Shown here piece by piece: positions 23,042 to 59,963 of a stretch of 64,000 nt of DNA. The notes beneath the pieces were generated by a model. It was not told the DNA's origin and searched no databases. It worked only from the letters and a program-made list of their open reading frames with translations. Position 1 is the first letter of the stretch, and each line of letters opens with the position of its first letter. This DNA comes from Candidatus Fermentithermobacillaceae bacterium (GTDB lineage: Bacteria > Bacillota > Sulfobacillia > Fermentithermobacillales > Fermentithermobacillaceae): contig JAGPNE010000001.1 of assembly GCA_018052455.1 (NCBI GenBank), positions 295,261 to 359,260 of the forward strand, written 5' to 3'. The position numbers and the translations under genes were made by a program.

Positions 23042-23060
23042 ACTGACTATTCTACCATGT

Positions 23061-23130
23061 CGCAAGGGGTCGGTTCTCGTGCTTCTCCAATAGGCAACAC
23101 TATTCCTCGAAAACAAAGCACGAGAACCGT
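23061..23130. repeat. copy A of the dispersed AGGGTCGGTTCTC repeat with a distal inverted partner
   Basis: GGGGTCGGTTCTCGTGCT at 23066-23083 and its exact reverse complement AGCACGAGAACCG at 23118-23130. Confidence 0.6.
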
Positions 23131-30896: not shown

Positions 30897-32951
30897 TTGA
30901 CAGCAAAACGAAGGATGAATAGCGAAGACCTCTACAAAATGATCTTTGTATCCGACCCACAGATGTCTCCTGACGGAAAACAAATAGCTTACGTAAAGAC
31001 CGTAATTGACGAGAAGACAAAGGAATATAGGAGCACAATATGGGTAGTCCCTGCAGATGGTTCTGGTAAACCGAGACCCTTTACCTCTGGTCCTAAGAGA
31101 GATACTTCACCAAGATGGTCTCCTGACGGAACCAATCTAGCTTTCGTGTCAGATAGGACAGATGAGAAGCAAGTGTGGATTATGGATACTTCGGGCGGTG
31201 AAGGTCTGCAACTGACCAGTATGCGCAGGGGAGCTTCAAATCCAGTCTGGTCTCCAGATGGCAAGAAGATCTGCTTCACGGCCCAGGTGAACCCGGAAGA
31301 TCCCCTCGATGAACTGCAGAAACCGCTAGATGAGAAAGCTAAGGAAGCCGAGAAGAAAAAGAAACTGGAAGAGCCCACATTGGTAACCAGATTGAAAATG
31401 AAGTCTGACGCAGCGATGGGACTCATAGGAAACAGTAGAAGCCACCTATTTGTACAGCCAGTTTGCGGAAAAGAACCTGCTAAGCAAATAACGTCGGGCG
31501 ATTTTGACCATTTTGGTCCTGCGTGGTCGCCCGATGGGAACTATATTGCATTTTGTGCAAATAGGCAGAAGGATCCAGATCGAGATCCGTGGATCGTAGA
31601 TATCTTCACTGTCCAGTCTGACGGTGGCGAACCAACCAAGATCACAGACAGCAAAGGACCCTCAACGAGCCCTGCCTGGACTCCCGATGGACAATATATC
31701 ATCTATGCAGGTCACAAACGCGAGTACGGGTCGGCGACACTGACGAAGATCTGGAAAGTGCCTTCAGAAGGCGGCGAATCAGTCTTACTGACTGGTTCTT
31801 TTGATCGCTCAGTAGGAGACAGTATGGCTGGAGATAGCCACTTTGGTCAATCAGAAAACGGGCCTATCATAAGTCCTGACGGAAGAACCATATACTTCCT
31901 TGCCAGCGACAGCGGAAACACCTCACTGTTTGCCGTCCCCTTAGAGGGCGGAGACGTAGACCTCGTCCTGGGCGGAAAACGTCAGATATTCGGCTTCACC
32001 ATCGACAGATCCGGAACGACGTTTGCAATAGCTCTTTCAACCCCAACCATCCCCGGTGACATTGGTGTTTTCCAGAAAGGTCCTAGCAAAGAATGTCTGC
32101 TCACGGCCGAAAACAAGGAACTTCTGGAAGAAGTCTACCTCAGCGAGCCGGAACCACTAGACTTCAAATCCAAAGACGGACAAGATAGGCTCGGCTGGGT
32201 TATGAAGCCAATTGGATATCAGAAAGGCAAGAAATATCCTGCAATTCTTGAGATTCACGGCGGACCCGCGTCAATGTATGGGTGCAATTTCTTCTTCGAA
32301 TTTCAAGTGCTCGCTGCAAAGGGATACACTGTATTATATACAAATCCCAGAGGCGGTGAGGGTTTTGGCCAGGAATTCCTCCATGCCGTAATAGGAGACT
32401 ACGGCGGTATGGATTACGAGGATCTCATGACCTGGATTGATTTTGCTGCTTGCCATGATCTGATCGATGAAAGCAACCTGGGCGTTACGGGAGGCAGTTA
32501 CGGCGGCTTCATGACAAACTGGATCGTGGGCCACACAGACAAGTTCAAAGCTGCTGTTACTCAAAGAAGTATTTCTAACTGGATCTCGTTCCACGGTGTA
32601 TCTGATATAGGATACACATTCACCGAAACACAGATTCTAGGCAATCCGTGGAAAGACTATGACCTTTTGTGGAAGCACTCGCCTCTTGCCTATGTAGAAA
32701 ACGTAACCACGCCTATTTTAATAATCCATGCTGAAAAAGACCAAAGGTGTCCAATTGAGCAAGGCGAACAATTTTACGTGGCGCTAAAGAAATTGGGCAA
32801 AGAAGCTGAGATGGCAAGGTTCCCCGAGTCAAATCATGAATTATCGCGTTCAGGAAAGCCTGTTTTGCGCGTGCACAGACTAAACCAAATTCTGAGATGG
32901 TTCGATGCGCACTTGCAAAAGAATCAAGAGGATTATGACCTTCCCCTCTAA
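30897..32951 (+). CDS. S9 family serine peptidase with N-terminal TolB-like beta-propeller
   Basis: PD40-like repeats (SPDGK..., WSPDG...), catalytic GGSYGG and a His near the C-terminus. Confidence 0.85.
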   Translation: MTAKRRMNSEDLYKMIFVSDPQMSPDGKQIAYVKTVIDEKTKEYRSTIWVVPADGSGKPRPFTSGPKRDTSPRWSPDGTNLAFVSDRTDEKQVWIMDTSGGEGLQLTSMRRGASNPVWSPDGKKICFTAQVNPEDPLDELQKPLDEKAKEAEKKKKLEEPTLVTRLKMKSDAAMGLIGNSRSHLFVQPVCGKEPAKQITSGDFDHFGPAWSPDGNYIAFCANRQKDPDRDPWIVDIFTVQSDGGEPTKITDSKGPSTSPAWTPDGQYIIYAGHKREYGSATLTKIWKVPSEGGESVLLTGSFDRSVGDSMAGDSHFGQSENGPIISPDGRTIYFLASDSGNTSLFAVPLEGGDVDLVLGGKRQIFGFTIDRSGTTFAIALSTPTIPGDIGVFQKGPSKECLLTAENKELLEEVYLSEPEPLDFKSKDGQDRLGWVMKPIGYQKGKKYPAILEIHGGPASMYGCNFFFEFQVLAAKGYTVLYTNPRGGEGFGQEFLHAVIGDYGGMDYEDLMTWIDFAACHDLIDESNLGVTGGSYGGFMTNWIVGHTDKFKAAVTQRSISNWISFHGVSDIGYTFTETQILGNPWKDYDLLWKHSPLAYVENVTTPILIIHAEKDQRCPIEQGEQFYVALKKLGKEAEMARFPESNHELSRSGKPVLRVHRLNQILRWFDAHLQKNQEDYDLPL

Positions 32952-33003: not shown

Positions 33004-33858
33004 ATGTTAAAAACAAACGAAGATCGTCTGGTAATGCTGTCGGTCATGGGCGAAGTTTCATCACCTGGGGCCAGACCCCGAATATGCTATGATGGGCATG
33101 TGCGCGTCACCCCAGGTACTGGCGGAATAACGTACAATGTCAAGGTTGGTGACCCAGCGTTTGGTTGGGCCGGCGATCACGTAGAACCTGGTGTAAGCAC
33201 CAAGAACTTGGACCAAAACGCAAACCAAGGATACAACACTCTATCATGCATAGGTAACACAGCCTATGTAGTCTCGGGAGATGCCAAAGGTGCTACTGGA
33301 GTAGTCACAGGTAAGCACGGCGGGATTGAGCACGTACTGGTTCACTTCGAAAAGGACATCCTGGAAAAACTCCAAATTGGCGACAAAGTTCAGATTCGGT
33401 CTATGGGGCAGGGTCTAGAACTCACCGGCTACCCGGATGTAAAGTGCATGAATCTATCCCCACTATTCCTGCATAGCATGGGCATTCAAGAGAAAGAGAG
33501 TATCCTCGAAGTACCCGTTTCCGCAATGGTACCTCCCGAGTTCATGGGCAGCGGCTTAGGAGCTTCTTCTGCCGAAACAGGTGACTATGATATCACTTCT
33601 ATGGAGGAAGAAAGGCTCAAGGAATTAGGGCTTGACAAAATAAGGCTGGGAGACATTGTGGCTATTCTAGACTCCTCATCGTACTACGGCAGAAGCTACA
33701 GACGCGGCGCAGTCATAATCGGCATAGTCGTGCACAGTAACTCTTTTGTATCGGGGCACGGGCCAGGCGTGACGTCGCTGCTAACATCTTTGAGCGGCAA
33801 GATCAAACCAGTGAAGTCTGAAAGGGCCAACATAGCCGACTATCTCAACCTGAAATAG
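33004..33858 (+). CDS. conserved hypothetical protein (possibly DUF4438-like)
   Basis: 284-aa ORF with an AGGAGG SD. No motif I can name with certainty. Embedded among peptidase genes. Confidence 0.5.
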   Translation: MLKTNEDRLVMLSVMGEVSSPGARPRICYDGHVRVTPGTGGITYNVKVGDPAFGWAGDHVEPGVSTKNLDQNANQGYNTLSCIGNTAYVVSGDAKGATGVVTGKHGGIEHVLVHFEKDILEKLQIGDKVQIRSMGQGLELTGYPDVKCMNLSPLFLHSMGIQEKESILEVPVSAMVPPEFMGSGLGASSAETGDYDITSMEEERLKELGLDKIRLGDIVAILDSSSYYGRSYRRGAVIIGIVVHSNSFVSGHGPGVTSLLTSLSGKIKPVKSERANIADYLNLK

Positions 33859-34813: not shown

Positions 34814-34982
34814 GAATACTCACCTCTTTTCTGGGGCACCCCGGGCTAAGATGACTTTTTCCCCCTTCCGCATGTTTTGCTAACCTAGACTTTCGCAGCA
34901 GTGAAGGTTAATTCCTTTTAGATGGCGAAGACGTATCATGTGTCAATATCGAAGTGCTTTTTATTTTGGGGAGGTGCAACGC

Positions 34983-36371
34983 ATGGAAAACAATGAAGCG
35001 GAGATGAAGTTCATAGACGACAACTTCGACGCATTTGTCTTGGAACTGCAAGAAGCCGTCAGAAAGCCTAGCATTGCAGCGCAAAACGTAGGAATGGAAG
35101 ATACCGCGCAATATTTCAAGGACCTTATGGGTAGCTATGGCATAGACGCGAGAATGATCCCTACGAAAGGCTATCCAGTCGTCTACGGTGAGGTCAAAGG
35201 AAAGTCGGAAAAGACAGTGCTTTTTTACAACCACTATGACGTTCAACCGCCTGATCCTTTGGAGGAATGGGAGTCAGATCCCTTTGGCGCAGACATTAGA
35301 GATGGCAAGATCTACGGGCGGGGAGTGTCAGACAATAAAGGCAATGCATGTGCGCGGATCCAGGCAATCGGCACTATGCTGAAATTGCGAAAAGAACTTC
35401 CTCTGACAGTCAAATTTCTCATTGAAGGCGAAGAGGAAATTGGAAGCCCTAGCCTTTCGGATTTTGTAGAGGAAAATACAGACCTTCTTAGGGCTGACTA
35501 CGGTGTCTGGGAGTCTGGTTATATGAACCCCAATGGCAGACCTGGCATATATCTCGGGGTCAAGGGCATGCTATACGTAGAACTCGCGGCGAAAGGTGCC
35601 TCTAAAGATATGCATTCTGGATCTGCAACTACAGTACCAAATCCCGCATGGCGCTTAATATGGGCACTATCAAGCATAAAAGATGCTAATGAACAAATCC
35701 TTATTCCCGGTTTCTACGATGATGTGCTGCCGCCAACTGCAAAAGAAATAGAACTCCTAAAGGACGCCATAGATGATAAAGAACTATCAGACGAGGAATC
35801 TAGACAGCTAGCAAGACAGAAGGCTCAATCGCTTGGCCTGGAAAACTACTTGCTTGACCTGTACGGTTTTGATCTGCACAAGCGTTCCTTGTTTAGCCCC
35901 ACCGCAAATATATGCGGCTTGAAGTCAGGTTACATTGGCGAAGGCCAAAAAACCGTCTTGCCTTCGCGGGCGCTAGCGAAAATGGATTACCGACTCGTTC
36001 CAGACCAAGACCCTAATGACATATTGGAAAAACTCAAGGAACATCTCCTTCGCCAAGGCTTTGGAGACATAGAAGTCCGCCTTGTAAGCCTTGATTATCC
36101 AGTAAAGACACCTGCGGAACTGCCGGTAGTAGATGCGGCGACAAGAGCTGCCCTTTCTGTTTACGGAAATGCACCCGTGGTCTCCCCCACCCAGGGAGGA
36201 TCAGGGCCTATGTACCCTTTCAAAAAGCACCTTGACCTGTCTTTTGTTTCTTTCGGCGTCGGCTATTGGGACTCTTCTAACCATGCGCCAAATGAGAACA
36301 TCCGACTAAAAGATTACAAGTCAGGCTTGAAAATGGTAATAGACTTTGTGGACAAGGCTGCGCGGATCTAA
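34983..36371 (+). CDS. M20 family dipeptidase
   Basis: HYDVQP, GRGVSDNKG and EGEEEIGS motifs. Start at the Met of MENNEAEM. Confidence 0.8.
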   Translation: MENNEAEMKFIDDNFDAFVLELQEAVRKPSIAAQNVGMEDTAQYFKDLMGSYGIDARMIPTKGYPVVYGEVKGKSEKTVLFYNHYDVQPPDPLEEWESDPFGADIRDGKIYGRGVSDNKGNACARIQAIGTMLKLRKELPLTVKFLIEGEEEIGSPSLSDFVEENTDLLRADYGVWESGYMNPNGRPGIYLGVKGMLYVELAAKGASKDMHSGSATTVPNPAWRLIWALSSIKDANEQILIPGFYDDVLPPTAKEIELLKDAIDDKELSDEESRQLARQKAQSLGLENYLLDLYGFDLHKRSLFSPTANICGLKSGYIGEGQKTVLPSRALAKMDYRLVPDQDPNDILEKLKEHLLRQGFGDIEVRLVSLDYPVKTPAELPVVDAATRAALSVYGNAPVVSPTQGGSGPMYPFKKHLDLSFVSFGVGYWDSSNHAPNENIRLKDYKSGLKMVIDFVDKAARI

Positions 36372-37245: not shown

Positions 37246-38802
37246 TCAGACTGTATGTTTCTTCAAATATGACCTCCATGTTATGGCCCACTTCGAAGGG
37301 TCATCGAACCAATCCTGAGAGATCTTGTGCACCACGCTTCTGTGAGGAGCGTTGCGCAAGACCTCGGGGCACTCATATGCTTCGCGTGACACTTCTTCTA
37401 GCGCTTCTACATATTCGTCTAGTTCTTCCTTTGACCACGATTCTGTAGGCTCTAGTGTAAAAGGTTCTGGAACAATCCACGGATGATGGCTTGTCCAATA
37501 ATGAAGCCCAAAGTCACACATCCTCCTCTGGACATCTTCGGTCGTAATAGTGGTTTCCTCTGTCAAAGGAGCCCAGCTGTACCGAACCTGCTCAAAGCGG
37601 TGTTCCCCAGGAGCATACGGGATATGAACTCCCTTTATCTTTTTTATCCTTGAAAGAAGGTAGTTGCTGTTTAAGACTGCTACCTTGGCTACCTCCCTAA
37701 GACCATCCTCTCCGAGACTCATCATCCACGCATAGGCTCTCACTACTGCAGGGATCCCCCCGTAAAACATCTTGATCTTGCCTATTGAATCCGGAAGGTC
37801 GTAATTCAGACTGTATTTTTTCCCATCAAAATCAACTATGGGAACGGGCAAAAACCTTTCGAGATCCTTCCTAACCCCTAGAGCACCCGAACCGGGTCCT
37901 CCACATCCGTGCGGCGAAGAAAAAGTCTTATGCAGGTTGAAAAAACACATATCGAAGCCTGCTTCCTTGGCTCTCGTAATTCCCAAAATCCCATTCGCAT
38001 TTGCCTGGTCATAACCGCATAGTCCGCCCACCTCATGCACAATCTGCGTGAACTCTCTGATCCGCGGATTAAATACGCCAGTGTCCTCAGGATTAGTCAC
38101 AATCAGGCCTGCTGTCCGTTGAGATACCGCATTCTTTAGCGCTTCCAAATCCGGATAGCCGTTCTCATCGGGATAGATTGTGACGACCCTGAACCCTTTG
38201 ACCGCAGAAGCTGCGGCATTAGAAGGATGGGAGAATATCGTGGTTATGATCTCGTCGCGATCCTGCTCCTCGTTTCTGGATTTTTGGTAAGCACGCATAA
38301 TGGATGCCATACCTAGGGCCGCTTGAGAACCCCCGCCAGGCTGGAATGAAAAGCGATCAAGACCAGATAATTCCCTAAGGAAAAGGTCGGTTTTATACAT
38401 TATCTCAAGTACGCCTTGCACTGTCTCTGATGGCTGATTAGGGTGCAGATCTTCAATCTTGGAAGACGAAGCAAATCTCTCATTTACTTTGGGACTATAC
38501 TTCATAGTGCAAGTCCCCTGCCCTATCTCTATGTTAACATCGGCGCCCAATGTCTCTTGTGAGAGGTGGAGGTAGTGCCTCAAAACCTGCGCCTGAGACA
38601 ATTCCGGGAGAGTAGGAGGACTCTTTCTTCTGACAACTTCAGGCAAGTTCTCCCACGGATTCCCGACTTCATCTATTACGTCATCCTCGGCTTCTTGGAC
38701 GCAAATTGCTCGTTGCCCCGGTATACTCAGTTCGAATATTATGGGTTCGTCCCACTTGGCTTGATGAAAGCCTCGGCGTAGCAACGGTCGTTCCCTTTTC
38801 AT
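37246..38802 (-). CDS. gcvPB: glycine dehydrogenase (decarboxylating) subunit 2
   Basis: NLHKTFSSPHGCGGPG PLP-lysine motif. Confidence 0.9.
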   Translation of the reverse strand: MKRERPLLRRGFHQAKWDEPIIFELSIPGQRAICVQEAEDDVIDEVGNPWENLPEVVRRKSPPTLPELSQAQVLRHYLHLSQETLGADVNIEIGQGTCTMKYSPKVNERFASSSKIEDLHPNQPSETVQGVLEIMYKTDLFLRELSGLDRFSFQPGGGSQAALGMASIMRAYQKSRNEEQDRDEIITTIFSHPSNAAASAVKGFRVVTIYPDENGYPDLEALKNAVSQRTAGLIVTNPEDTGVFNPRIREFTQIVHEVGGLCGYDQANANGILGITRAKEAGFDMCFFNLHKTFSSPHGCGGPGSGALGVRKDLERFLPVPIVDFDGKKYSLNYDLPDSIGKIKMFYGGIPAVVRAYAWMMSLGEDGLREVAKVAVLNSNYLLSRIKKIKGVHIPYAPGEHRFEQVRYSWAPLTEETTITTEDVQRRMCDFGLHYWTSHHPWIVPEPFTLEPTESWSKEELDEYVEALEEVSREAYECPEVLRNAPHRSVVHKISQDWFDDPSKWAITWRSYLKKHTV

Positions 38803-40226
38803 CGACTCCGCCCTCCTTCTGCTCCATGCACGATTTCTTCGAGCGCATCACACAACAAGAGTACATCGTTTCTCCTGTGGACCTCTGTTACGCAATAAAT
38901 AGCAGTCTGACCCAGTTCAGGAAACTCCTGAGATATGTCCTTGCCTCCAAAGATCCCTCTGGACAGAAGTTCACGGTTGACCTTTTCAACGGTAAGGCCA
39001 GTCTTGTCGAAATTGACCGCGAACTCTTTGAAGAAATGGCTCTGAAAACCGTGTATCTGTATTCCTTCTATCCCTCCGATTTTCTTGGCTGCGTAGGCAG
39101 AGTTGCGCATTATTGTCTCGCCTACCTCTATCATTCCCAAAGGCCCCATGAGTGCGAGATAAACTCCTGCAGTAATACCCCACAGAGCCGCCGCAGTCCC
39201 TACAAACTCCTTACCCATCTCCCTTTTCGCGAAAGAAGTTCTATCGTACAACACATCTCCGAAGCCCCATTCTCCTTCTACTTCTGTCTGCGCGATGCCG
39301 AACAGTCTAGAAGGATACTCTGCCACAAATTCTTCTTTATCATGGCTGGCAACGAATCCGGCTACACCCCCACCATAGTTCATGTGAATACCCAGGGTCT
39401 GAATATCACCTACCACAATGTCGGCGCCATAGTGGGAAGGTGGCGCAAGTACTCCCAGTGTAATTGGATCTACTCCTACAAGCATAAGGGAGCCGTTTTC
39501 GTGGGCTATCTCAGCGATATTCTGGCCCATCGTTTCTATAAGCCCAAAGTAGTTTGGATTTTCGAAATACACCGCTGCTACATTGCGCGTAAGCTTTGCC
39601 ACAAGGTCTGACACATCGACACACCCAGTATTGGCATCGTATCCCACTTTCTCTACCGTCATCGCCGGGTCTGCGTAATTCTTGATGGCCAGTAGTCTCT
39701 GCGGGTTTATGTTCCCAGCCACCAAAATTGCGTTCCGTTGCGTTATGCGACCAGCCATTCTCACTGCAGTCGCAGCTGCCTGGCACCAATCGTACGTAGG
39801 AACGTTTACAACATCCATATCTAGAAGCTCTGCCATCATACTTTGGTACTCAAAAAGCGCCTGAAATCTTCCGTGGTCTTCGTACGGTTCTCCGGCATAC
39901 GACGTCAGAAACTCAGACCTAGATGCCACTTCGTCACATATTGCGGGTACGTAGTGCTGATAGCAACCTGCGCCAAGAAAACTCAGGCACTCCTTTGTCG
40001 TCTTGTTTCCTGACAGGAGATCTTCCATGTGCCGTGAGAGGCCTTCTTCTGAAAGAATTGCCCTCGGTAGATCCATCTTGCCTTTGTATCTGAGATCTTC
40101 AGGAATTCCAGAAAAAAGCTCTTCAGTATCAGTTATCCCGACCTCTCGCATCATTTCCTCCTGTACTTGTGTCTGAGAGTTCGGGATGTAAGGATGCGCA
40201 CGCCTGCGTTCACCCATAAATATCAC
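38799..40226 (-). CDS. gcvPA: glycine dehydrogenase (decarboxylating) subunit 1
   Basis: full-length GcvPA similarity; 4-nt overlap with gcvPB. Confidence 0.9.
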   Translation of the reverse strand: MIFMGERRRAHPYIPNSQTQVQEEMMREVGITDTEELFSGIPEDLRYKGKMDLPRAILSEEGLSRHMEDLLSGNKTTKECLSFLGAGCYQHYVPAICDEVASRSEFLTSYAGEPYEDHGRFQALFEYQSMMAELLDMDVVNVPTYDWCQAAATAVRMAGRITQRNAILVAGNINPQRLLAIKNYADPAMTVEKVGYDANTGCVDVSDLVAKLTRNVAAVYFENPNYFGLIETMGQNIAEIAHENGSLMLVGVDPITLGVLAPPSHYGADIVVGDIQTLGIHMNYGGGVAGFVASHDKEEFVAEYPSRLFGIAQTEVEGEWGFGDVLYDRTSFAKREMGKEFVGTAAALWGITAGVYLALMGPLGMIEVGETIMRNSAYAAKKIGGIEGIQIHGFQSHFFKEFAVNFDKTGLTVEKVNRELLSRGIFGGKDISQEFPELGQTAIYCVTEVHRRNDVLLLCDALEEIVHGAEGGRSR

Positions 40227-40287: not shown

Positions 40288-41280
40288 CTAAAACATGTCA
40301 CTCAGAAACGCAAAAAACCGCTCGCTGGGCTTTATAGCAGAACCAATTTCAGAGATAACCATGCCTGCCACAATCAAAATAGCACCCCAAATCTCACGGG
40401 TAGAGAGAATCTCGCCTGCTTTCAGCCAAGCAAAGAACGCTCCAAACACTGGTTCGCACGACAGTATGAGGGCTGCGTGAGTAGCGGTTGTGTATTTTTG
40501 GACACCAGATTGTATTAGTATTGTAATCGAAGTAGCGATAATGGCAGTGTATGTAATGGATGCCCAGCTGTCCTTAGGTATCGTGAGAGGCCATTCGAAC
40601 AAAACCGCTGCAACAAAAGCTCCGAAAGACACGACCAAGAGCTGAATTGCTGCAAACACCAATGGGTCATTTTCCTTTGAGTATTTTTCTATGAGCAGAA
40701 TGTGGGCTGCAAAACCTATGGCACACAGAAATACCAGGACGTCTCCAGCCTGAACCATAACAGGAAAAGTCAATGACATGAACCCCAAACCAATTGTTGC
40801 AAGAACCACCCCAAATACAGTGTTTGTAGGAGGAACAGACTTAAGCAGAAAAGCTGATGCCACAGGAACCATGACCACTGATAGCCCAGTGATAAACGCC
40901 GCTTTCCCGGCAGGGACTGTTATCAAGCCCACTGTCTGGGTAGCGTAGGCCAAAAACAACGTCACGCCGGTAATCACCGAGCCTAAAGTAAACTCTCTAT
41001 TAAGCTGCCGAATCTTCAAACGCGCACTGCTTTCTCGCCAGTTCCCCGGGGTTGATTCTACCCCCTGTCTGCCAATAACATGGGCAGTATCTGAGTTATT
41101 CTTCACTAAAAATGCTCTTAAGAGCACAAAAACCAACAGGAAAAGACCGCCGACTAAGAACCGCACGGCTATAAATGTAAAGGGCTTTATGGCCTCTATT
41201 GCCTCTTTCACTACCACAAAGGTAGTACCCCAGATTACGGTTACAAGAAGCAAGAGCAGATCTGCTACTATTTGGCTCAT
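40288..41280 (-). CDS. DMT superfamily transporter (EamA family)
   Basis: two EamA repeats, 10 TM helices. Confidence 0.8.
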   Translation of the reverse strand: MSQIVADLLLLLVTVIWGTTFVVVKEAIEAIKPFTFIAVRFLVGGLFLLVFVLLRAFLVKNNSDTAHVIGRQGVESTPGNWRESSARLKIRQLNREFTLGSVITGVTLFLAYATQTVGLITVPAGKAAFITGLSVVMVPVASAFLLKSVPPTNTVFGVVLATIGLGFMSLTFPVMVQAGDVLVFLCAIGFAAHILLIEKYSKENDPLVFAAIQLLVVSFGAFVAAVLFEWPLTIPKDSWASITYTAIIATSITILIQSGVQKYTTATHAALILSCEPVFGAFFAWLKAGEILSTREIWGAILIVAGMVISEIGSAIKPSERFFAFLSDMF

Positions 41281-41317: not shown

Positions 41318-42181
41318 TCATGGTTCGTAATGGTAAAGACCAGTACAGACAGTTGCAGCCGGTCCGGTTTGCCATACATGACCATCTTTCTTCCACTCTA
41401 CCAGAAGCGTGCCTCCAGGCAAATTCACTTTTATGGGGATCCCTTTCTCTGCCTTACCATTAAGAATAGTAGCAACCACCGAAGCAGAAGAGCCGGTTCC
41501 CGATGCGAGTGTTATCCCAGAACCTCTTTCCCATATGCGCATATCTATTTCGTCTTTTGACTTTACAGCAACAAATTCTATATTTGCACGCTCAGGAAAT
41601 ATTGGGTTATGCTCGAGAACTGGGCCAATTATCTCAAGGTCGATCCCGTTTACGTCGTCGCAGAAGAAGACGCAGTGGGGGTTCCCCATTGACACACAAG
41701 TACCGTAGAACACCTCACCATTTGATTGGATAGGTTCGTTAACGACTGGTTCAGGCCCTTGCAGCCTGGCAATAGGGATTTCAGATCTCCTCAGCCTGGG
41801 CTCTCCCATATCCACTGAAATTGACTCTACTCTGCCATCTTTTACCGTAAGATAGGGCTTTATCAACCCGGCCTTTGTTTCGATAGTTAGTTCAACCTTG
41901 TCTGTAAGTTTGTTTTCGTAGACGTACTTTGCGAAACATCTGATCCCGTTGCCGCACATCTCACCCTCCAGGCCGTCAGCATTAAACATCCGCATCCTGA
42001 AGTCCGCTATATTAGATGGCTCAATTGTGATCAGCCCGTCTGAACCTACCCCAAAATGCCGATCAGCCATGACCCGGGTTAACGCGCTCCAGTTTTCCTC
42101 TTTTTCGTAGGCAAACCTATCTATATAAAGATAGTCATTGCCGAGTCCATGCATTTTCGTAAACGGAATAGTTCTAGTCAC
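41318..42181 (-). CDS. dapF: diaminopimelate epimerase
   Basis: HGLGNDY and CGNGIRC catalytic cysteine motifs. Confidence 0.85.
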   Translation of the reverse strand: MTRTIPFTKMHGLGNDYLYIDRFAYEKEENWSALTRVMADRHFGVGSDGLITIEPSNIADFRMRMFNADGLEGEMCGNGIRCFAKYVYENKLTDKVELTIETKAGLIKPYLTVKDGRVESISVDMGEPRLRRSEIPIARLQGPEPVVNEPIQSNGEVFYGTCVSMGNPHCVFFCDDVNGIDLEIIGPVLEHNPIFPERANIEFVAVKSKDEIDMRIWERGSGITLASGTGSSASVVATILNGKAEKGIPIKVNLPGGTLLVEWKKDGHVWQTGPAATVCTGLYHYEP

Positions 42182-50825: not shown

Positions 50826-52970
50826 TTGAACGAATGTAAGAAAGAAGACGGAAGTGGGATTGGAGCAGAGCGTATGCAATCTAGGCACAGCATAGATATG
50901 AGTGAACAATCTGGTAATCTGACCGAACGAGCATCTTTGTATCCTCAGTCTTCGGACCTTAACATAACAATTGCCCTCGTCGGACAACCCAACGTTGGCA
51001 AGAGCGTAATTATGAATTTGCTCACAGGCGCAGGCGCTATGGTTTCAAACTACCCGGGCACTACGGTTGAAATCACAGAAGGCTATTTTCCCACGCCTGC
51101 AGGCAAGGTGCGCATAATCGATACGCCAGGTATCTATAGCCTCCACTCGGATACACAGGAACAAAAAGTAACGCAGAGGATTCTGCTCGAAGAAGACATA
51201 GACATCATAGTCAACGTAGTAGACGCCAGAAATCTCTCGAGAAATCTGTACCTGACGCTGCAACTTTTGGAACTTGACATTCCACTAATCCTGGTCTTGA
51301 ACCAAATGGATATGGCTGAAGAACTGGGGATGGAAATTGATGTGAGTGCGCTTTCGGACATTCTTGGGGTGCAGATCGTCACCATGGTAGCCTCTAAGGG
51401 AAGAGGATTGGACGAGCTAAAGGAAATCATCTCGACAATTAGCGCTTGTTCGAAAGACATGGAACTTGACGAAGGAAGTGTACCTCTTTCTACCCATGGG
51501 CGCAATAAAGATTTATTGACTTACTCAGAACCAGTAGAAAACGTCCTATCCATGCTTCAGAGCCGTATTGAAGATACAATCCCGGAGGAAGAAGGCAAAC
51601 ACAGGCTTCATCCACCGAGAGCTCTTGCGATTCACCTTATGGAACACGACAGTTTGGACGAAGATGTTTTCCATGTCTATCCTGAACTTGCTGAAGTTGT
51701 CGAGAGTTTTCAGAAAGATCTATCAAACGGATATATGCCGTGCGAAAACTGTTTTAGGGGATGCGCATTTTGTCCTGCCGGGCAGCAGTCTCATCCGCCT
51801 CTGCAGACATGTATCGAAAGAACACAGAAGGCCCGTGAAATAGCATTACAAGTCGTGAGATACAAGACAAAAGAATCGGTTTCTCCAAGAGCCCGCATCG
51901 AAGAATTCTTGGACAGGCCTTCTACTGGTATCCCGGCTCTAATACTGATAACCTTGGCTTCGCTCAAAGTGATCTTATGGTTCCTGGAATTCGCCGAGGC
52001 GTTTGTCCCATGGGCACTTGGGCCGCTTGTCGACGCAATAACAAGGTTTGCCCACACCTTCCCTCCCGGCAGCGCCCTTGAAATGATAATTTCTGCCATA
52101 CCAGAGGGTCTACTTTTACCTTTTGAAGTAGTGATGCCTACCATGATATCCATCTACGTTATAATGGCACTCTTGGAGGACTCTGGACTAATGCCCAGAA
52201 TCGCTGTGATGATGGATAGCGTCATGTCTCTTCTCAAGTTGCCAGGGCAGGCCATAATCCCGATCGTACTTGGCTTCGGATGCAGGGCCCCTGGGGTCCT
52301 AGCAACAAGAGCTTTGCCCGACAAGCAGTCTCGATTGGTTGTAACTGCTCTTCTCGCAATTCCCATACCTTGTGCGGCTACCATTGGAATTGTCACAGGC
52401 GTAGCTAAGTCTTTCGGTGCAAATCTTTGGGTAATTTACGGCTCTGTATCGGTAGTTTTCGTGTTGCTCGCGCGCCTACTCGCAAAATATCTCAAGTCGG
52501 ATTACGAATTGATACTTGAGGTCCCTCCCATACAGATTCCTTCTCTCAAAGGCGTAGGAATGAAGGTATGGATGCGGTTAGAAGGCTTTTTCAAGCAGGT
52601 ACTACCTGTACTCATTATGACAAGCATAGGAATTAAGATACTGTTGAATTCGGGAGCTCTGGAAGTTCTAAGCAAACTAGACCCTATTAGCATGAAGGTG
52701 TTCGGAATTCAAGGACAATCTCTTGCAGCTGTCGCAGTTACTGTGGTTCAAAGATATGCTGCACCAATGGTACTCTTAAATCTCCCTTTAAGTGCACGGG
52801 AAGCAACCATAGCCACATCCATGATAGCGCTTTCCATGCCGTGCTTGCCAGTATCATTTCTAGTCTTCAAGGAATTCGGGTGGAAAACTCTTATTTACAT
52901 ATTTGCAATAGCCATACTGATTTCACTGACAGTAGGAATCACCCTAAACCTCCTTCTGCCTGTGTTTTGA
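50826..52970 (+). CDS. feoB: ferrous iron transporter FeoB
   Basis: G-domain (GQPNVGKS, DTPG) plus Gate-motif membrane domain. Exact start uncertain; candidates 50826, 50874 and 50898. Confidence 0.85.
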   Translation: MNECKKEDGSGIGAERMQSRHSIDMSEQSGNLTERASLYPQSSDLNITIALVGQPNVGKSVIMNLLTGAGAMVSNYPGTTVEITEGYFPTPAGKVRIIDTPGIYSLHSDTQEQKVTQRILLEEDIDIIVNVVDARNLSRNLYLTLQLLELDIPLILVLNQMDMAEELGMEIDVSALSDILGVQIVTMVASKGRGLDELKEIISTISACSKDMELDEGSVPLSTHGRNKDLLTYSEPVENVLSMLQSRIEDTIPEEEGKHRLHPPRALAIHLMEHDSLDEDVFHVYPELAEVVESFQKDLSNGYMPCENCFRGCAFCPAGQQSHPPLQTCIERTQKAREIALQVVRYKTKESVSPRARIEEFLDRPSTGIPALILITLASLKVILWFLEFAEAFVPWALGPLVDAITRFAHTFPPGSALEMIISAIPEGLLLPFEVVMPTMISIYVIMALLEDSGLMPRIAVMMDSVMSLLKLPGQAIIPIVLGFGCRAPGVLATRALPDKQSRLVVTALLAIPIPCAATIGIVTGVAKSFGANLWVIYGSVSVVFVLLARLLAKYLKSDYELILEVPPIQIPSLKGVGMKVWMRLEGFFKQVLPVLIMTSIGIKILLNSGALEVLSKLDPISMKVFGIQGQSLAAVAVTVVQRYAAPMVLLNLPLSAREATIATSMIALSMPCLPVSFLVFKEFGWKTLIYIFAIAILISLTVGITLNLLLPVF

Positions 52971-53005
52971 GAAATCGCATGTATGCCTAAGAAAGGAGAA
53001 GCAAC

Positions 53006-53257
53006 GTGACCCTCCTCGACGCACGACCCGGTGATACAATAGTGATCGAAGAATCCAACTTGGGCAGATCAGCCCAAAAAAGACTATGGGATCTTGGCCT
53101 TTTGCCTGGCACAAAAGCAAAAGTAATCTGCTCCCACCCGTTCAAAGGACCAATATTGCTCGAAGTAGACAACTCAAGACTAGCAATAGGCCGAAGACTT
53201 GCACGACAAATAAGTGTTAGTAAGGAGCACAGGGTCGGTTCTCATGCTCCACGTTAG
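53006..53257 (+). CDS. feoA: ferrous iron transport protein A
   Basis: FeoA fold. The last ~10 codons (EHRVGSHAPR) are encoded by repeat copy B. Confidence 0.75.
   Translation: MTLLDARPGDTIVIEESNLGRSAQKRLWDLGLLPGTKAKVICSHPFKGPILLEVDNSRLAIGRRLARQISVSKEHRVGSHAPR
53224..53250. repeat. copy B of the dispersed AGGGTCGGTTCTC repeat
   Basis: GGAGCA-CAGGGTCGGTTCTCA-TGCTCC; 6-bp stem with the core in the loop. Confidence 0.6.
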
Positions 53258-53289
53258 CTGTGTTTTCGAGTTGGAAGGAGGATTGTCTA

Positions 53290-53775
53290 ATGCCTAGACC
53301 TACTAAACCCAGGTGGGTAGAGTTTCCACCTAGGGCCTTGTATTTCAAGCCTGCAGGTGTTCCTAGGTCAGAACTTCAGGAAGTAATCCTTGGCGTAGAT
53401 GAAGTCGAAGCTATTCGCCTCAAAGACTATGTGGGCCTAGAACAGATAGAATGTGCCAAACGGATGAATCTGGCCCAGAGCACATTTCAGCGAATTCTCA
53501 CCGAGGCCAGAAGAAAAGTTGCAGAAGCTCTAATTGAAGAAAAATCTTTGCGTGTAGAAGGCGGCAACTACCTGGTATTCCCTATGAACTATAGGTGCCA
53601 TACGTGCGGCCACGAGTGGACAAACGATGAAAGGCCCAAAGAAGACATCGTATGTCCAAAATGCGGGGGGCTAAACTTGGAATCTTTCAGAGAGCCATGT
53701 GCTTCTGACCAAGCTCACAAACACGCTGGCAGAACACAAAAAAGACATGGCCACGAACGACGCCGAAATCGGTAA
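53290..53775 (+). CDS. DUF134 (UPF0251) putative DNA-binding protein with C-terminal zinc ribbon
   Basis: MPRPTKPRWV...YFKPAGVP...LEQIECAKRM DUF134 signature, C-terminal CHTCG...CPKCGG, GGAGGAG SD. Confidence 0.7.
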   Translation: MPRPTKPRWVEFPPRALYFKPAGVPRSELQEVILGVDEVEAIRLKDYVGLEQIECAKRMNLAQSTFQRILTEARRKVAEALIEEKSLRVEGGNYLVFPMNYRCHTCGHEWTNDERPKEDIVCPKCGGLNLESFREPCASDQAHKHAGRTQKRHGHERRRNR

Positions 53776-53801
53776 TTGGCACATCATTATGAAATCAGGA
53801 G

Positions 53802-54644
53802 ATGAGTTGGTTGATAAAGGCAGACAATAGAGGCTCTCAAGACCAGTCCAAGTCTGGTGCAGGAGTTGACAAGTTAGAGCAACCAGATAACAGTCACATT
53901 CAAAAGACCATTGCTGTAGCAAGCGGTAAGGGCGGCGTAGGCAAGTCCTCCGTATCAGCGCTACTTGCTTCTGAAATAAGGAAAAGAGGATTCAAGGTTG
54001 GGATCCTTGATGCCGATGTAACTGGTCCTAGCATTCCGAAACTGTTCGGGCTGAAAGGGGTTCCATCAATGCTAGGTTCGCAGCTCCTTCCGGAAATCAG
54101 TGCCTCTTCAATCCGAGTGATGTCTTTGAACTTGCTTCTAGAAAACGAGGATGACCCGGTCATATGGCGAGGCCCCCTACTTGCCGGCGTGATTAAGCAA
54201 CTGTGGAAAGACGTCTTATGGGGAGAAATCGATTACATGGTGATTGATCTACCGCCTGGCACAGGAGACATACCACTTACCGCTTTTCAATCTCTGCCAA
54301 TTGACGGTGTAGTCATTGTCTCAACTCCGCAGGAGCTCTCGGAACTCATCGTAAAAAAAGCTGTTACCATGGTTCGAATGTTCAACATCCCTATACTAGG
54401 TCTCATTGAGAACATGTCCTGGATTAAGTGCCCTAACTGTGCAGAGAGAATTCAACCGTTTGGTCCAAGCAGAGCAGATGCTATCGCGGAATCGATGGAA
54501 CTAGATCTTCTTGGATCGCTGCCGCTTGATCCTGAGGTAAGCATCCTTGGTGACCGGGGCACAATTGAAAGCTATTCGTGTGTAGAACTCCAGAGCATTG
54601 TCGACGGAATTCTCAACAAACCAGAAATGGCGATTGCAGAGTAG
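53802..54644 (+). CDS. Mrp/NBP35 (ApbC) family iron-sulfur cluster carrier ATPase
   Basis: SGKGGVGKSS deviant Walker A, CPNC motif. Confidence 0.85.
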   Translation: MSWLIKADNRGSQDQSKSGAGVDKLEQPDNSHIQKTIAVASGKGGVGKSSVSALLASEIRKRGFKVGILDADVTGPSIPKLFGLKGVPSMLGSQLLPEISASSIRVMSLNLLLENEDDPVIWRGPLLAGVIKQLWKDVLWGEIDYMVIDLPPGTGDIPLTAFQSLPIDGVVIVSTPQELSELIVKKAVTMVRMFNIPILGLIENMSWIKCPNCAERIQPFGPSRADAIAESMELDLLGSLPLDPEVSILGDRGTIESYSCVELQSIVDGILNKPEMAIAE

Positions 54645-54695
54645 CACAGTCAAGCGCTGGCTACTAAAGTGGGACATCAATGAAACAATCGCTCG

Positions 54696-54734
54696 ACAAG
54701 TAGGGGGAAAACCGCAGGTCTCCCCCCTACTTGT
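54696..54734. terminator. bidirectional hairpin (acaagtaggggg / cccccctacttgt)
   Basis: 12-bp perfect stem between convergent mrp and aroM. Confidence 0.55.
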
Positions 54735-54772
54735 TGGATACTTGCCCTTGAGATAAGCCCTATCGTGTCTTA

Positions 54773-55447
54773 TTACAGTAGCTCTGCCAAGGTACGCGCG
54801 ACTATTGAGCGAGCAAGAATTACAGGAACCCCGAGGATCTCTTTCACCATGTTTTTATCCGCAATTGTGTATCCTATACAATCAAGAATCCCCATCTGCA
54901 CGTCTGCCTTCTTTAAGGCTTCGGCCGCCTCTACAATTCCGGCCATTGATCCGTATGGCGAAGCTGCCTGCACTTGCACCGAAGACGCGGTTCTTGACCA
55001 CCTTAGTTTTGCATGCTCCATCTGATCTTTATCCGGAATAAAGACACCCAGTCTCATCCCTTTTCCAACTGCGCTGACCGTATTGAATAGTACTTTCTCG
55101 GGCCTTACAAGTAGTTTGCTGCTTCTAAATTCTGGGAATTCCCCTGTGCAGACCAGTGCAATAATCTGCGCCCCTTTTCCTTCCAGTTCATTGATTTTCT
55201 CTTGCATCCTTGGCAGAATGTGTTTCTCAGCGATTTTCACCTGCGTTCCATCCCTCATTCGTGTGATCAGTACATAATCACCCGGTTCAGGGGATAGCTT
55301 CCTTACCTCATCAAGAGTCATACCATCAAGAGCACCAGCCTCAATCACGTGAACACCATCTCCCAAGAATGGAATCATCTCAGGTATTAAATCGTGTCTG
55401 GGCGACTGGCCAATGGTAACGGTACCTAAAATCCTCTTAGTGTGCAT
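54773..55447 (-). CDS. aroM: AroM family protein
   Basis: alignable along its length with E. coli AroM (TIGxxP, ILDCxG, VPVxLxxxxxARxxAELL). Confidence 0.75.
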   Translation of the reverse strand: MHTKRILGTVTIGQSPRHDLIPEMIPFLGDGVHVIEAGALDGMTLDEVRKLSPEPGDYVLITRMRDGTQVKIAEKHILPRMQEKINELEGKGAQIIALVCTGEFPEFRSSKLLVRPEKVLFNTVSAVGKGMRLGVFIPDKDQMEHAKLRWSRTASSVQVQAASPYGSMAGIVEAAEALKKADVQMGILDCIGYTIADKNMVKEILGVPVILARSIVARTLAELL

Positions 55448-55469
55448 AACCTCACCGCCCTTTCCGCTG

Positions 55470-56438
55470 CTACTTGAGCTCAGGGTAAACACACGTCATC
55501 TCTCCATGGTACCCAAGTGTCTGCAAGTGATTCATTGGCCCGTAAAGGCGCACAATGGCATCGAACTCATTCTCATCAAAGAAAGAGTATTTCTCTGTGC
55601 CGAAGCCTTTTGCGACTTCTACAGAAAAACGAACAACCTGTTCAATATCGACCACATGACTGGCACCTGTGGCGCAGCCAGGAACCGCCGTTTCCGTCGT
55701 GATGGCTACTCCGACTACCGGAGCGGATGTTGCGGTAGCCGGCTGAAGAATACTGTTCAAATGGTAAAGACCATTTCCATAGGGCGTTATGTCCTGTACA
55801 GTCACAGGAAAGGTCACTGGCAATCTACCTGTCACGATGCTCATGACCTCAAGCAAGTCTTCAGATATTCGCAAGATATAGCCTTCTTTGACTGTAGGAG
55901 AAATCGCAAAACCCTTGTGGTTTATGACTCTATTACCCTTGGTTGTATCGATAGACAAAACCGCATCCATCCCCGAATCTACCTCGTACCTGTTCATTGT
56001 GTCCATACCTACAGGTGATCCCATAAATGGCACGGGGTCGTGAGGTTGAGTTGGAGCGTTAGGACAGATATGAGTAGTCACAATCACATCTCCTGGCAGA
56101 ACATCGCCTTTTTGCGCCATATGCGCTAGCTTGATCGCAACTGCCAATGCCGAAACTGCGCCGTCTCCGTCTGAAACCAAACCAATCATCTCAGGTCGAG
56201 CGCCTATGCCCCCCAATCGCCCTATCACTCCCAAAGTAGGAGCGTGTCCTCCCGAACTCTTCCCTTCAGAACCTGGAACCAATACTTTTACAAAATCCGT
56301 GCTGCCGCTGTCGCCGTGTATTGTTGCAAACTCACCATGCTGTAGTCCCAAACCCCTTAGGTACTCTATTACCTCTTTGCCGTTGACCTGGGCGCTGTCA
56401 AGCAACGAAATTGCCTCAAGTGTAGATCTAAAACTCAC
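55470..56438 (-). CDS. conserved hypothetical protein (possibly DUF1177 family)
   Basis: 322-aa ORF between aroM and the LD-carboxypeptidase gene. Family assignment is from memory, not verified. Confidence 0.5.
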   Translation of the reverse strand: MSFRSTLEAISLLDSAQVNGKEVIEYLRGLGLQHGEFATIHGDSGSTDFVKVLVPGSEGKSSGGHAPTLGVIGRLGGIGARPEMIGLVSDGDGAVSALAVAIKLAHMAQKGDVLPGDVIVTTHICPNAPTQPHDPVPFMGSPVGMDTMNRYEVDSGMDAVLSIDTTKGNRVINHKGFAISPTVKEGYILRISEDLLEVMSIVTGRLPVTFPVTVQDITPYGNGLYHLNSILQPATATSAPVVGVAITTETAVPGCATGASHVVDIEQVVRFSVEVAKGFGTEKYSFFDENEFDAIVRLYGPMNHLQTLGYHGEMTCVYPELK

Positions 56439-56454
56439 CTAAAATCACCCCCAT

Positions 56455-57435
56455 CTAAATCACTGGTTGTTCAAGAAATACCAACCGACTATAGTCCTTC
56501 TTCCCAAGATCCGCCGTAATTTCCACGCGCAACCCCAAAGGTAGTACCCCATTGTACTTACCATGTCCGCAAGGAACATTAGCCAAACAAGGTTTGCCAG
56601 TTTCGCTGAAGTACTGTCTTAACACCTCTTCTACTGAAAACGAAGGTCCCTGCGGTTGAGGATCCGGCTCACAATCAGTGAAATCCCCAAGGCAAAAGCC
56701 CTCTGCGTCGTCTAGTTTGCCTGAGAGCTTAAGTTGGCATAACATCCGGTCTATTCTGTATGGCTTTTCGCCTATGTCTTCTAAGAAAAGGATGCAGCCT
56801 TTGGTCTGGATCTCCCAGGGAGTACCTATAGTCGATGCGACCAACGAAAGGTTCCCGCCAACAAGTCTGCCGGAGGCTCTGCCCTTCTCTAGCACAGTCA
56901 ACGGTCGCCGCTCCTGCACTGCATCTTCGGATCCACACGTAGGAAGAGGCAGATCCTTTAGAGGCCGCATACCAAACAAAACATCCCTAACGCAGGCTAG
57001 GTTGTATTCCTGCATCTTGGGTGCCCAGAGTTCCGCCATAGGCCCGTGGAACGTGCAGAGATTCGCTTCCTTCAAAAACGCGAGATGAAGCGCTGTGATA
57101 TCTGAGTATCCCATCAAGATTTTCGGGTGTGCTCTAATACAATCAAAATCCAAAAGAGGAAGTATGCGCATGGCTCCATAACCTCCCCTAGCAGCTATCA
57201 CGGCCTTTACGTCGGGATCCGACCAGGCCCGCATGAGATCCAAGGCCCTTTCGTTATCCTTACCTGCTAGATAGCCCCATCGCTGCAGAACTGAATCACC
57301 AAATTGGACTTTGAGACCCAACTCCTCAAAGACACGCACTCCACGTTCTAGCGATTCTTGTTCAACCGGGCCCGATGGAGCCACTATAGCAACAGTATCA
57401 CCACTTTTTAGGGCCTTCGGCTTCACTACGTCCAT
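56455..57435 (-). CDS. LD-carboxypeptidase (peptidase S66, LdcA/MccF family)
   Basis: VAIVAPSG nucleophile region, S66-wide similarity. Confidence 0.85.
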   Translation of the reverse strand: MDVVKPKALKSGDTVAIVAPSGPVEQESLERGVRVFEELGLKVQFGDSVLQRWGYLAGKDNERALDLMRAWSDPDVKAVIAARGGYGAMRILPLLDFDCIRAHPKILMGYSDITALHLAFLKEANLCTFHGPMAELWAPKMQEYNLACVRDVLFGMRPLKDLPLPTCGSEDAVQERRPLTVLEKGRASGRLVGGNLSLVASTIGTPWEIQTKGCILFLEDIGEKPYRIDRMLCQLKLSGKLDDAEGFCLGDFTDCEPDPQPQGPSFSVEEVLRQYFSETGKPCLANVPCGHGKYNGVLPLGLRVEITADLGKKDYSRLVFLEQPVI

Positions 57436-57734
57436 AACCGCACTCCTTCCTGACTCTACGCCAATTACGTCTGCTCACCTACTTGCATACCTAGAGTAAC
57501 TTCGCCTAATGCTCTCTGATTCCCTTCAACAGGTGCCCACTTAATGCGCACCGAACCCCTCCTTAGACCCAACAGGGTGACGCAGGACGAAAAAATCTCA
57601 CGGGCGCGCACGAGTTGCATTAGATTTCCAAAAGTGCAATCATATTCATGATGCATTTTCGAGCCTGGTATGTCATCTGTATTTGATTCAATATTTGGTC
57701 CCGATATCAGTTCCGCAAAAGGAGGCACACCAAA

Positions 57735-58073
57735 GTGGCAGTCTACGATAAGGCATATGAACTGGCGAGAGAACTCAAAGAAAGCGCGGAGTACAAAGAG
57801 TACCAAGCGGCCAAAGAGGCCATCGAAGGAAACGAGCCGGCCCTTCAAATCCTAAGAGATTATTGGCAGCAGCAACTGTCAATTCAAACCGCTCTACTGA
57901 CCGGAAGAGAACCGGACGAAAAAACCCAGGAGAGTTTCAGCAAAACCCAAGAACTCATAAGCATGCACGGACCGATCCAGAGATTCATGCAAGCCGAACG
58001 GCAGGTACTCACCATGCTCGCCGATATCCAGAGAATCCTTAGCGACTCCCTTGACTTACTAGACTACACCTAA
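57735..58073 (+). CDS. YlbF/YmcA family regulatory protein
   Basis: GTG start with AAAGGAGG SD; 112 aa helical protein with YlbF-like signature. Confidence 0.65.
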   Translation: MAVYDKAYELARELKESAEYKEYQAAKEAIEGNEPALQILRDYWQQQLSIQTALLTGREPDEKTQESFSKTQELISMHGPIQRFMQAERQVLTMLADIQRILSDSLDLLDYT

Positions 58074-58082
58074 CAAGGGAAA

Positions 58083-58109
58083 GAAGCGCAGGGTCGGTTC
58101 TCCTGCTTC
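58083..58109. repeat. copy C of the dispersed AGGGTCGGTTCTC repeat
   Basis: GAAGCGCAGGGTCGGTTCTCCTGCTTC in the convergent intergenic region. Confidence 0.6.
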
Positions 58110-58202
58110 ATCAACACCTAAGGTCTTACAAGAGACAGAAAACAGAGGCAGTCTTTCACATAAGACACTGCAGCATGATTTAATACCAATTCCATAGCTA
58201 AA

Positions 58203-59886: not shown

Positions 59887-59963
59887 TGGTCGGGGCGACT
59901 GGATTTGAACCAGCGGCCTCATGGTCCCGAACCATGCGCGCTGCCAAGCTGCGCTACGCCCCG
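59887..59963 (-). tRNA. tRNA-Pro (anticodon CGG)
   Basis: folded by hand: acceptor CGGGGCG/CGCCCCG, D-arm GCGC..GCGC, anticodon stem CATGG/CCATG with loop TTCGGGA, T-arm GCTGG-TTCAAAT-CCAGT, CCA encoded. Confidence 0.9.

Follow-up and report, generated by a model that had tools for sequence, protein, structure and literature searches.

A three-gene operon encodes S66, DUF1177 and AroM proteins

The 64,000-nucleotide (64-kb) stretch of DNA analysed here, called the window below (contig JAGPNE010000001.1 of a Candidatus Fermentithermobacillaceae bacterium, positions 295,261 to 359,260), carries three closely packed genes on its minus strand. In order of transcription, these encode a 326-amino-acid peptidase of family S66 (window positions 56455 to 57435, ATG start), a 322-amino-acid protein of the DUF1177 family (55470 to 56438, GTG start) and a 224-amino-acid protein of the AroM family (54773 to 55447, ATG start). 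The listing of open reading frames (ORFs) also offers a longer AroM form with a GTG start at position 55492, but the start at 55447 is preferred because the N-termini of homologues and the gene call of the Joint Genome Institute (JGI) both agree with it. Intergenic gaps of 16 nucleotides (S66/DUF1177) and 22 nucleotides (DUF1177/AroM) separate the genes, each with a purine-rich ribosome-binding site, just as an initial annotation made from the sequence alone had described three co-directional genes with gaps of 16 to 22 nucleotides. Co-transcription of S66 and DUF1177 is suggested by the 16-nucleotide gap, which holds no terminator, and we infer that all three genes reside on one transcript. 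On reading the sequences, no signal-like N-terminal segment is evident in S66, DUF1177 or AroM, and therefore the substrates of these proteins are expected to be imported or made inside the cell.

Downstream of AroM, a hairpin with an 18-base-pair GC-rich stem (positions 54696 to 54734, not assigned to a strand) lies between the operon and a convergent gene for a ParA/Mrp-like ATPase. The surrounding region (54680 to 54772, 93 nucleotides) has a predicted folding energy of -37.6 kcal/mol and a z-score of -4.5. The hairpin was initially annotated as a strong terminator. The stable stem is real, but the operon strand lacks a U-tract and a simple terminator scan did not call the element. The hairpin is a probable bidirectional terminator.

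Upstream of S66, a 299-nucleotide intergenic region (57436 to 57734, minus strand for the operon) is shared with a divergent YlbF-like gene, in agreement with the roughly 300 base pairs noted earlier. A promoter scan of this leader returned just one weak sigma-70-like site (57676 to 57648). The initial annotation had pointed to the leader as a place where a regulatory RNA might reside, and no sign of one was seen: Rfam gives no match at E <= 1 across positions 54500 to 58200, and the predicted fold of the leader is no more stable than those of shuffled sequences (z = +0.63). These two results give no support to a riboswitch or other regulatory RNA at 57436 to 57734. Close relatives do not carry this leader. 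JGI annotation places a 63-amino-acid ORF within it (57465 to 57656; L006:8783-8974), which has no Pfam match and looks spurious.

DUF1177 and AroM form a conserved gene pair

To view the operon in a wider context, the ORFs of 83 non-redundant loci surrounding DUF1177 genes were clustered. In 46 of the 78 loci with sufficient sequence downstream, an AroM gene lies no more than 7 kb from DUF1177, and in 33 it follows DUF1177 immediately. Reciprocally, of the 56 AroM-centred loci from metagenomes that have 1.1 kb or more of upstream sequence, 45 include DUF1177, which is immediately upstream of AroM in 29. Adjacent pairs (n = 34) overlap by 1 to 4 nucleotides in 13 cases and are separated by 0 to 30 nucleotides in another 12. 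The linkage is both reciprocal and tight, which is consistent with joint expression of the two genes. Co-occurrence of AroM and DUF1177 in other genomes, the lack of which was said to refute the initial proposal, is therefore strong, and the pair is present in both Bacteria and Archaea. Hundreds of bacterial and archaeal species show this link, frequently with translational coupling of the two genes. The description of DUF1177 and AroM as a conserved pair, situated among peptide transporters and peptidases, is new here.

When only loci with 5 kb of sequence on each side are considered (n = 54), a peptidase (M29/NicX-like, M20, S51 or S66) is found in 42, a peptide transporter (OPT, or an ABC system of the Dpp/Opp type with an SBP5-type binding protein) in 35, and one or the other in 50. 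Five layouts recur. Thermococci, Moorella, Synergistota and Tissierellia carry a hydantoin-racemase-like gene followed by DUF917, DUF1177, AroM, M29 and OPT, often with a PucR-type regulator. In Bacilli the order is a Dpp-type ABC transporter, DUF1177, M20 and IclR, and in Streptomyces the genes are S51, IclR, DUF1177, M20 and NCS1. Erwinia, Pantoea and Serratia have IclR, OPT, DUF1177, AroM, S51 and a racemase. The arrangement S66-DUF1177-AroM is confined to the clade of the window. The window shares the order and close spacing of DUF1177 and AroM with the PucR-OPT-racemase-DUF917-DUF1177-AroM-M29 cluster, but only the pair itself has been kept, and S66 stands in place of the upstream DUF917 gene.

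Several loci show departures from simple adjacency. In Synergistota and other lineages, ORFs of approximately 280 to 360 amino acids without a Pfam match separate DUF1177 from AroM (L034:8954-9802, L094:4587-5432 and L013:8974-10065), and one cluster of these ORFs is represented in 15 of the 56 AroM-centred loci. A single 532-amino-acid protein (P0364) fuses DUF1177 to AroM, but this singleton comes from a 4-kb Logan contig, is possibly a frameshift artefact, and is not used as evidence. In Pyrococcus horikoshii, the second gene upstream of DUF1177 (L001:6271-6948) is the one whose product has been deposited as Protein Data Bank (PDB) entry 2eq5 (E = 7e-142), and the DUF917 gene of the archaeal cluster is related to PDB entry 2o3i. 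Parts of the archaeal cluster therefore already have structures.

S66 is a lineage-specific partner of the pair

The assignment of the first gene to family S66 holds for both Pfam domains (N-terminal, E = 1.6e-43 and 148 bits against a gathering threshold of 25; C-terminal, E = 8.8e-39 and 133 bits against 23.7). Its best sequence matches in the PDB are the muramoyltetrapeptide carboxypeptidases 6uuk (E = 1e-39) and 1zrs (E = 1e-36), and the residues at the positions of the Ser-His-Glu catalytic triad, S111 (in GYSD), E219 (LED) and H291 (GHG), do not vary among 31 homologues and line up with the equivalent motifs of 6uuk. The protein scores only 177.8 bits against the LdcA equivalog model (NCBIfam NF008424), for which the cutoff is 378, and it is therefore best described as an S66 enzyme without assigned specificity.

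The initial annotation treated the three genes as one module, and this did not survive the comparison: S66 is near DUF1177 in only 4 of the 83 loci, all from close relatives within the clade of the window. What is conserved is the DUF1177-AroM pair and not the three-gene set. S66 is a lineage-specific partner of this pair, and the partnership may be functional or only syntenic.

In related Bacillota, orthologues of S66 with at least 61% identity occupy the same syntenic block, although the composition of the block is variable. The close S66-DUF1177 order of the window is also present in L009 and L097, whereas L012 has an amidohydrolase gene between the two, and in L090 the order is ABC-2 exporter, S66, PAP2, DUF1177 and AroM. 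A tight block in some of these relatives (L099:1135-5675, L090 and L093) is composed of a DrrA-like ABC ATPase, a 257-amino-acid membrane protein, S66, PAP2 and AroM. Where this block lacks DUF1177, there is a four-nucleotide overlap between PAP2 and AroM, and the PAP2 protein resembles undecaprenyl diphosphatases at a sub-threshold score. A LarA-like gene (lactate racemase family) lies directly upstream of S66 in L010 (15-1292) and L012 (3747-5063), and upstream of PAP2 in L011 (5466-6746), a locus that lacks S66. No LarA-like gene is present in the window.

Predicted folds and conserved residues of DUF1177 and AroM

The middle protein had been placed in DUF1177 only tentatively, and the placement proved correct, as evident by a Pfam match (PF06675) of 461 bits (E = 1.1e-138) that covers profile positions 2 to 271 of 272. 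The protein has 69% identity to its P. horikoshii counterpart and 60 to 65% to those of Streptomyces, Serratia and Bathyarchaeia. Identities of 60 to 70% are seen across the family as a whole (P0001-P0120; L009-L088), which spans Bacillota, Actinomycetota such as Streptomyces, Enterobacteria, Thermococci and Bathyarchaeia. When one genome per species was scanned, at least 596 stretches matched, whereas a profile run against 1.84 billion representatives clustered at 50% identity yielded only 616 hits, most of which are fragments, with approximately 30 full-length clusters. None of these 616 hits provides a bridge from distant DUF1177 relatives to a known family. Such conservation suggests strong constraint, frequent horizontal transfer, or both. 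It is unusual for a peptidase, and may reflect difficult chemistry or the need for an obligate assembly.

Fold prediction indicates that DUF1177 shares the alpha/beta core of the Zn-dependent exopeptidase superfamily, and the protein is therefore predicted to be a hydrolase with a fold like those of M17, M20, M28 and M42 enzymes. Pfam assigns the protein to DUF1177 alone and to no named MEROPS or Pfam peptidase family, and searches of the PDB with a single sequence (phmmer) or a profile returned no credible match. DUF1177 differs from M17 (PepA/LAP), M20, M28 and M42 enzymes in that it has no detectable sequence relation to them and in how tightly conserved a family it is across domains of life. 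Eight residues (D90, D92, H133, E152, D164, D216, H226 and E274) are invariant and four more (H123, C125, C255 and D264) are nearly so among 83 sequences from Bacteria and Archaea. The invariant residues appear to be sufficient in number for a putative metal site. Two 733-amino-acid singletons (P0389 and P0395) have a PucR-type regulator (GGDEF_2 plus HTH_30) fused to a C-terminal DUF1177 domain. They may be genuine sensor fusions, or two genes may have been merged during gene calling. One PucR-DUF1177 fusion corresponds to the protein MDO4565640.1 of a Clostridia metagenome-assembled genome at NCBI.

Membership of the third protein in the AroM family is confirmed by Pfam (PF07302; E = 2.9e-77, 259.5 bits against a cutoff of 23.8) and by the NCBIfam AroM model (PRK10481; 222.8 bits against a cutoff of 198). 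The predicted structure has the two-domain racemase fold of the Asp/Glu/hydantoin racemase superfamily, and the best structural match is P. horikoshii 2eq5, which was deposited as a hypothetical hydantoin racemase. Identity to 2eq5 is only 17%, the protein falls below the threshold of the superfamily's Pfam model PF01177, and an N-terminal TIGQSPRxD motif sets AroM apart from other members of the superfamily. One cysteine is present in each domain. C100 (in CTGEFP) aligns with the SCAADP segment of 2eq5 and C190 (DCIGY) with GCTGMS, and both are invariant in sets of 55 and 44 homologues. From what is established for the racemase superfamily, we take these two residues to be the catalytic positions. 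AroM is therefore predicted to be a two-cysteine, cofactor-independent racemase or epimerase. No characterised enzyme is matched by DUF1177 or AroM, a point in favour of the initial annotation.

To our knowledge, no function has been assigned to AroM since its sequencing in Escherichia coli in 1986. The E. coli gene sits in an aroL-yaiA-aroM operon. A role in aromatic amino acid synthesis, as implied by the name, is rejected because no shikimate-pathway genes lie near annotated AroM loci and the link in E. coli consists of operon position only. The resemblance to E. coli AroM that was earlier judged convincing is real (E = 2e-21) but distant (25% identity over the full length), and the two proteins belong to the same Pfam family and share the second cysteine motif (DCxG). 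However, AroM of E. coli K-12 (L089:3429-4106) has serine at the first cysteine position and departs from the DUF1177-linked proteins (R17M, Q14I and D41G) at three residues that are invariant among them. It also has no DUF1177 neighbour. The E. coli protein probably represents a branch that has diverged or that differs in function, and may not share the activity of AroM proteins that are linked to DUF1177.

A possible route for degrading peptides of unusual stereochemistry

Considering gene order, spacing, family membership, predicted folds, conserved residues and neighbourhood statistics together, we propose that the operon encodes three co-transcribed enzymes that act in the cytoplasm to break down peptides of non-standard stereochemistry, such as those with D-residues or unusual bonds. 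We give this proposal a probability of approximately 0.45. In this lineage, S66 would trim a C-terminal D-residue, for example from a murein tetrapeptide, before DUF1177 and AroM act. DUF1177 would then cleave a further peptide or amide bond by using its own set of invariant Asp, His and Glu residues, and AroM would use a two-thiol mechanism to invert an alpha-carbon, either in the substrate or in the product (a freed amino acid or a dipeptide). After inversion, ordinary L-specific enzymes could complete the breakdown. In keeping with this proposal, the genome from which the window is taken encodes a wealth of peptidases as well as DapF. The processing of peptides that contain D-amino acids had been suggested in the initial annotation. 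The metallo-exopeptidase-like and two-cysteine racemase-like folds predicted here, along with the genomic contexts, fit this suggestion, but its three-gene scope was not retained.

Known systems for murein peptide recycling provide a useful comparison. These include ykfABCD of Bacillus subtilis (YkfA, YkfC and YkfB) and the E. coli set of LdcA, MpaA and YcjG. The resemblance is one of logic only, in that an LD-carboxypeptidase of family S66 is combined with another peptidase and with an epimerase through which a D-containing dipeptide becomes digestible, all in the cytoplasm. Unlike these sets, the operon has DUF1177 as its second enzyme in place of an NlpC/P60 (YkfC) or M14 (MpaA) peptidase, and its candidate epimerase is AroM, with a two-cysteine racemase fold, rather than a member of the enolase superfamily (YkfB and YcjG). 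Neither an NlpC/P60 or M14 peptidase nor an enolase-type epimerase is among the partner genes. Furthermore, the operon lacks a linked transporter, and the pair is also found in Archaea that lack murein. The core function of the pair is therefore not specific to murein, and recycling of murein peptides, although a plausible role for the operon, is one candidate among several.

Several observations weigh against our proposal. As noted above, S66 accompanies DUF1177 within a single clade, and in L093, L099 and L100 the order is S66, PAP2 and AroM, with DUF1177 missing. No transporter to accompany the enzymes was found in the operon or in the rest of the 64-kb window. The assignment of DUF1177 to the exopeptidases faces the difficulty that hhalign gives a probability of 7% for a match to M20 (an alignment built from neighbouring genes) and 0.7% for a match to E. 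coli PepA, and that neither the canonical H-D-EE-D/E-H ligand set nor that of M17 is recognisable in, or alignable to, the protein. Because these profile-profile comparisons gave no meaningful alignment, the relation to exopeptidases is at the level of fold only. DUF917, hydantoin-racemase-like genes and NCS1 permeases are present at many loci, which suggests cyclic amides, and not linear peptides, as substrates. Finally, our literature searches recovered no biochemical work on DUF1177 or AroM. No publication on the function of DUF1177 was found, its sole full-text mention being in an unrelated paper, and queries with PF06675 and IPR009561 returned nothing. Likewise, nothing was found on the origin of the Pfam name S-Me-THD.

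The restriction of S66 linkage to 4 of 83 loci could also mean that the genes are simply juxtaposed, such that S66 is a housekeeping cell-wall LD-carboxypeptidase of a lineage-specific envelope block and DUF1177-AroM acts independently, with no single pathway. Consistent with this explanation, S66 homologues with 54 to 57% identity occur alone, near SpoIIE/TilS/FtsH genes or near an M28 peptidase gene, relatives have the order ABC-2 exporter, S66 and PAP2 whether or not DUF1177 is present, and L011 carries DUF1177-AroM in the absence of S66. We consider this explanation somewhat unlikely, given that the 16-nucleotide, terminator-free gap suggests co-transcription, that the same close order is found in L009 and L097, and that S66 and AroM remain co-directional and near each other across the clade even as the intervening genes vary. 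A much less probable role for the operon is immunity to a peptide antibiotic, in which an MccF-like S66 enzyme would detoxify an aminoacyl-nucleotide or peptide antibiotic and DUF1177 and AroM would process the freed moiety. Structures of MccF are indeed strong sequence matches (E of about 1e-32 to 4e-32), and the DrrA-like ABC-2 exporter and PAP2 genes beside S66 in relatives resemble a resistance layout of the bacitracin type. However, the murein carboxypeptidases outscore MccF, the ABC and PAP2 proteins fall far under their NCBIfam cutoffs, the window has neither an exporter nor a PAP2 gene, and DUF1177-AroM is found mostly in nutrient-uptake contexts. This role therefore seems highly improbable.

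The composition of the wider gene clusters raises a different issue, since the pair may have a cyclic amide, for example a hydantoin or diketopiperazine, as its core substrate. DUF1177 would then serve as an L-carbamoylase or cyclic amidase and AroM would racemise the ring or the opened product, as in the hydantoinase process, leaving S66 peripheral. The commonest of the wider clusters (PucR, OPT, hydantoin-racemase-like, DUF917, DUF1177, AroM and M29/NicX) favours this arrangement, as do the NCS1 permeases that adjoin DUF1177 in Streptomyces and at two other loci, and the deposition of AroM's top structural match as a hypothetical hydantoin racemase. Moreover, the neighbourhoods of cyclodipeptide-oxidase-like genes are enriched in genes for hydantoin-racemase-like proteins, DUF917, AroM, OPT and ABC transporters, and peptidases (Andreas and Giessen, 2024; PMC11055893). 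Its authors noted that none of these enriched genes has been characterised, and did not mention DUF1177. Their paper is also the only publication that we found to treat AroM and DUF917 jointly. A cyclic amide route nonetheless appears quite unlikely for the operon, as evident by the absence of DUF917, hydantoin-racemase-like, NCS1, OPT and M29 genes anywhere in the 64-kb window, and by the fact that the main transporters (OPT and SBP5-type ABC) and partner enzymes (M29, M20, S51 and S66) of the pair are oriented toward peptides. The cluster also has no characterised member.

Returning to our proposal of peptide hydrolysis coupled to epimerisation, a bolder version is that DUF1177-AroM constitutes a hitherto unrecognised, near-universal two-enzyme unit, possibly a physical complex, that combines amide hydrolysis with cofactor-independent stereoinversion in a new catabolic route for D-residue or cyclic peptides used by anaerobic peptide fermenters and Thermococci. 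We regard this version as unlikely. If true, it would provide the first function for the AroM family, and with S66 in front, the route would take in murein stem peptides as well. More generally, the reciprocal family link, the setting of peptide importers and peptidases, and the predicted hydrolase and two-thiol racemase folds turn an anonymous operon of conserved hypothetical genes into one that can be assayed. This offers a testable route to a first function for AroM and DUF1177, with no mechanistic surprise so far.

Other features of the window

Many genes for peptide and amino acid catabolism are present between window positions 21842 and 42181. These include three M20-type peptidases (21842 to 23116, 29238 to 30704 and 34938 to 36371), a protein of the S9 prolyl oligopeptidase family (30897 to 32951), DUF4438 (33004 to 33858), the glycine-cleavage P subunits (37246 to 40226), an EamA transporter (40288 to 41280) and DapF (41318 to 42181). 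On the plus strand, a cluster of FeoB, FeoA, DUF134 and the ParA/Mrp-like ATPase (50826 to 54644) converges on the operon, and in matching JGI contigs a gene for an iron-dependent repressor lies farther along after the Feo cluster. On the minus strand, a gene for tRNA-Pro (CGG) is located at positions 59887 to 59963, between a CcdA/DsbD-like gene and a galactokinase gene.

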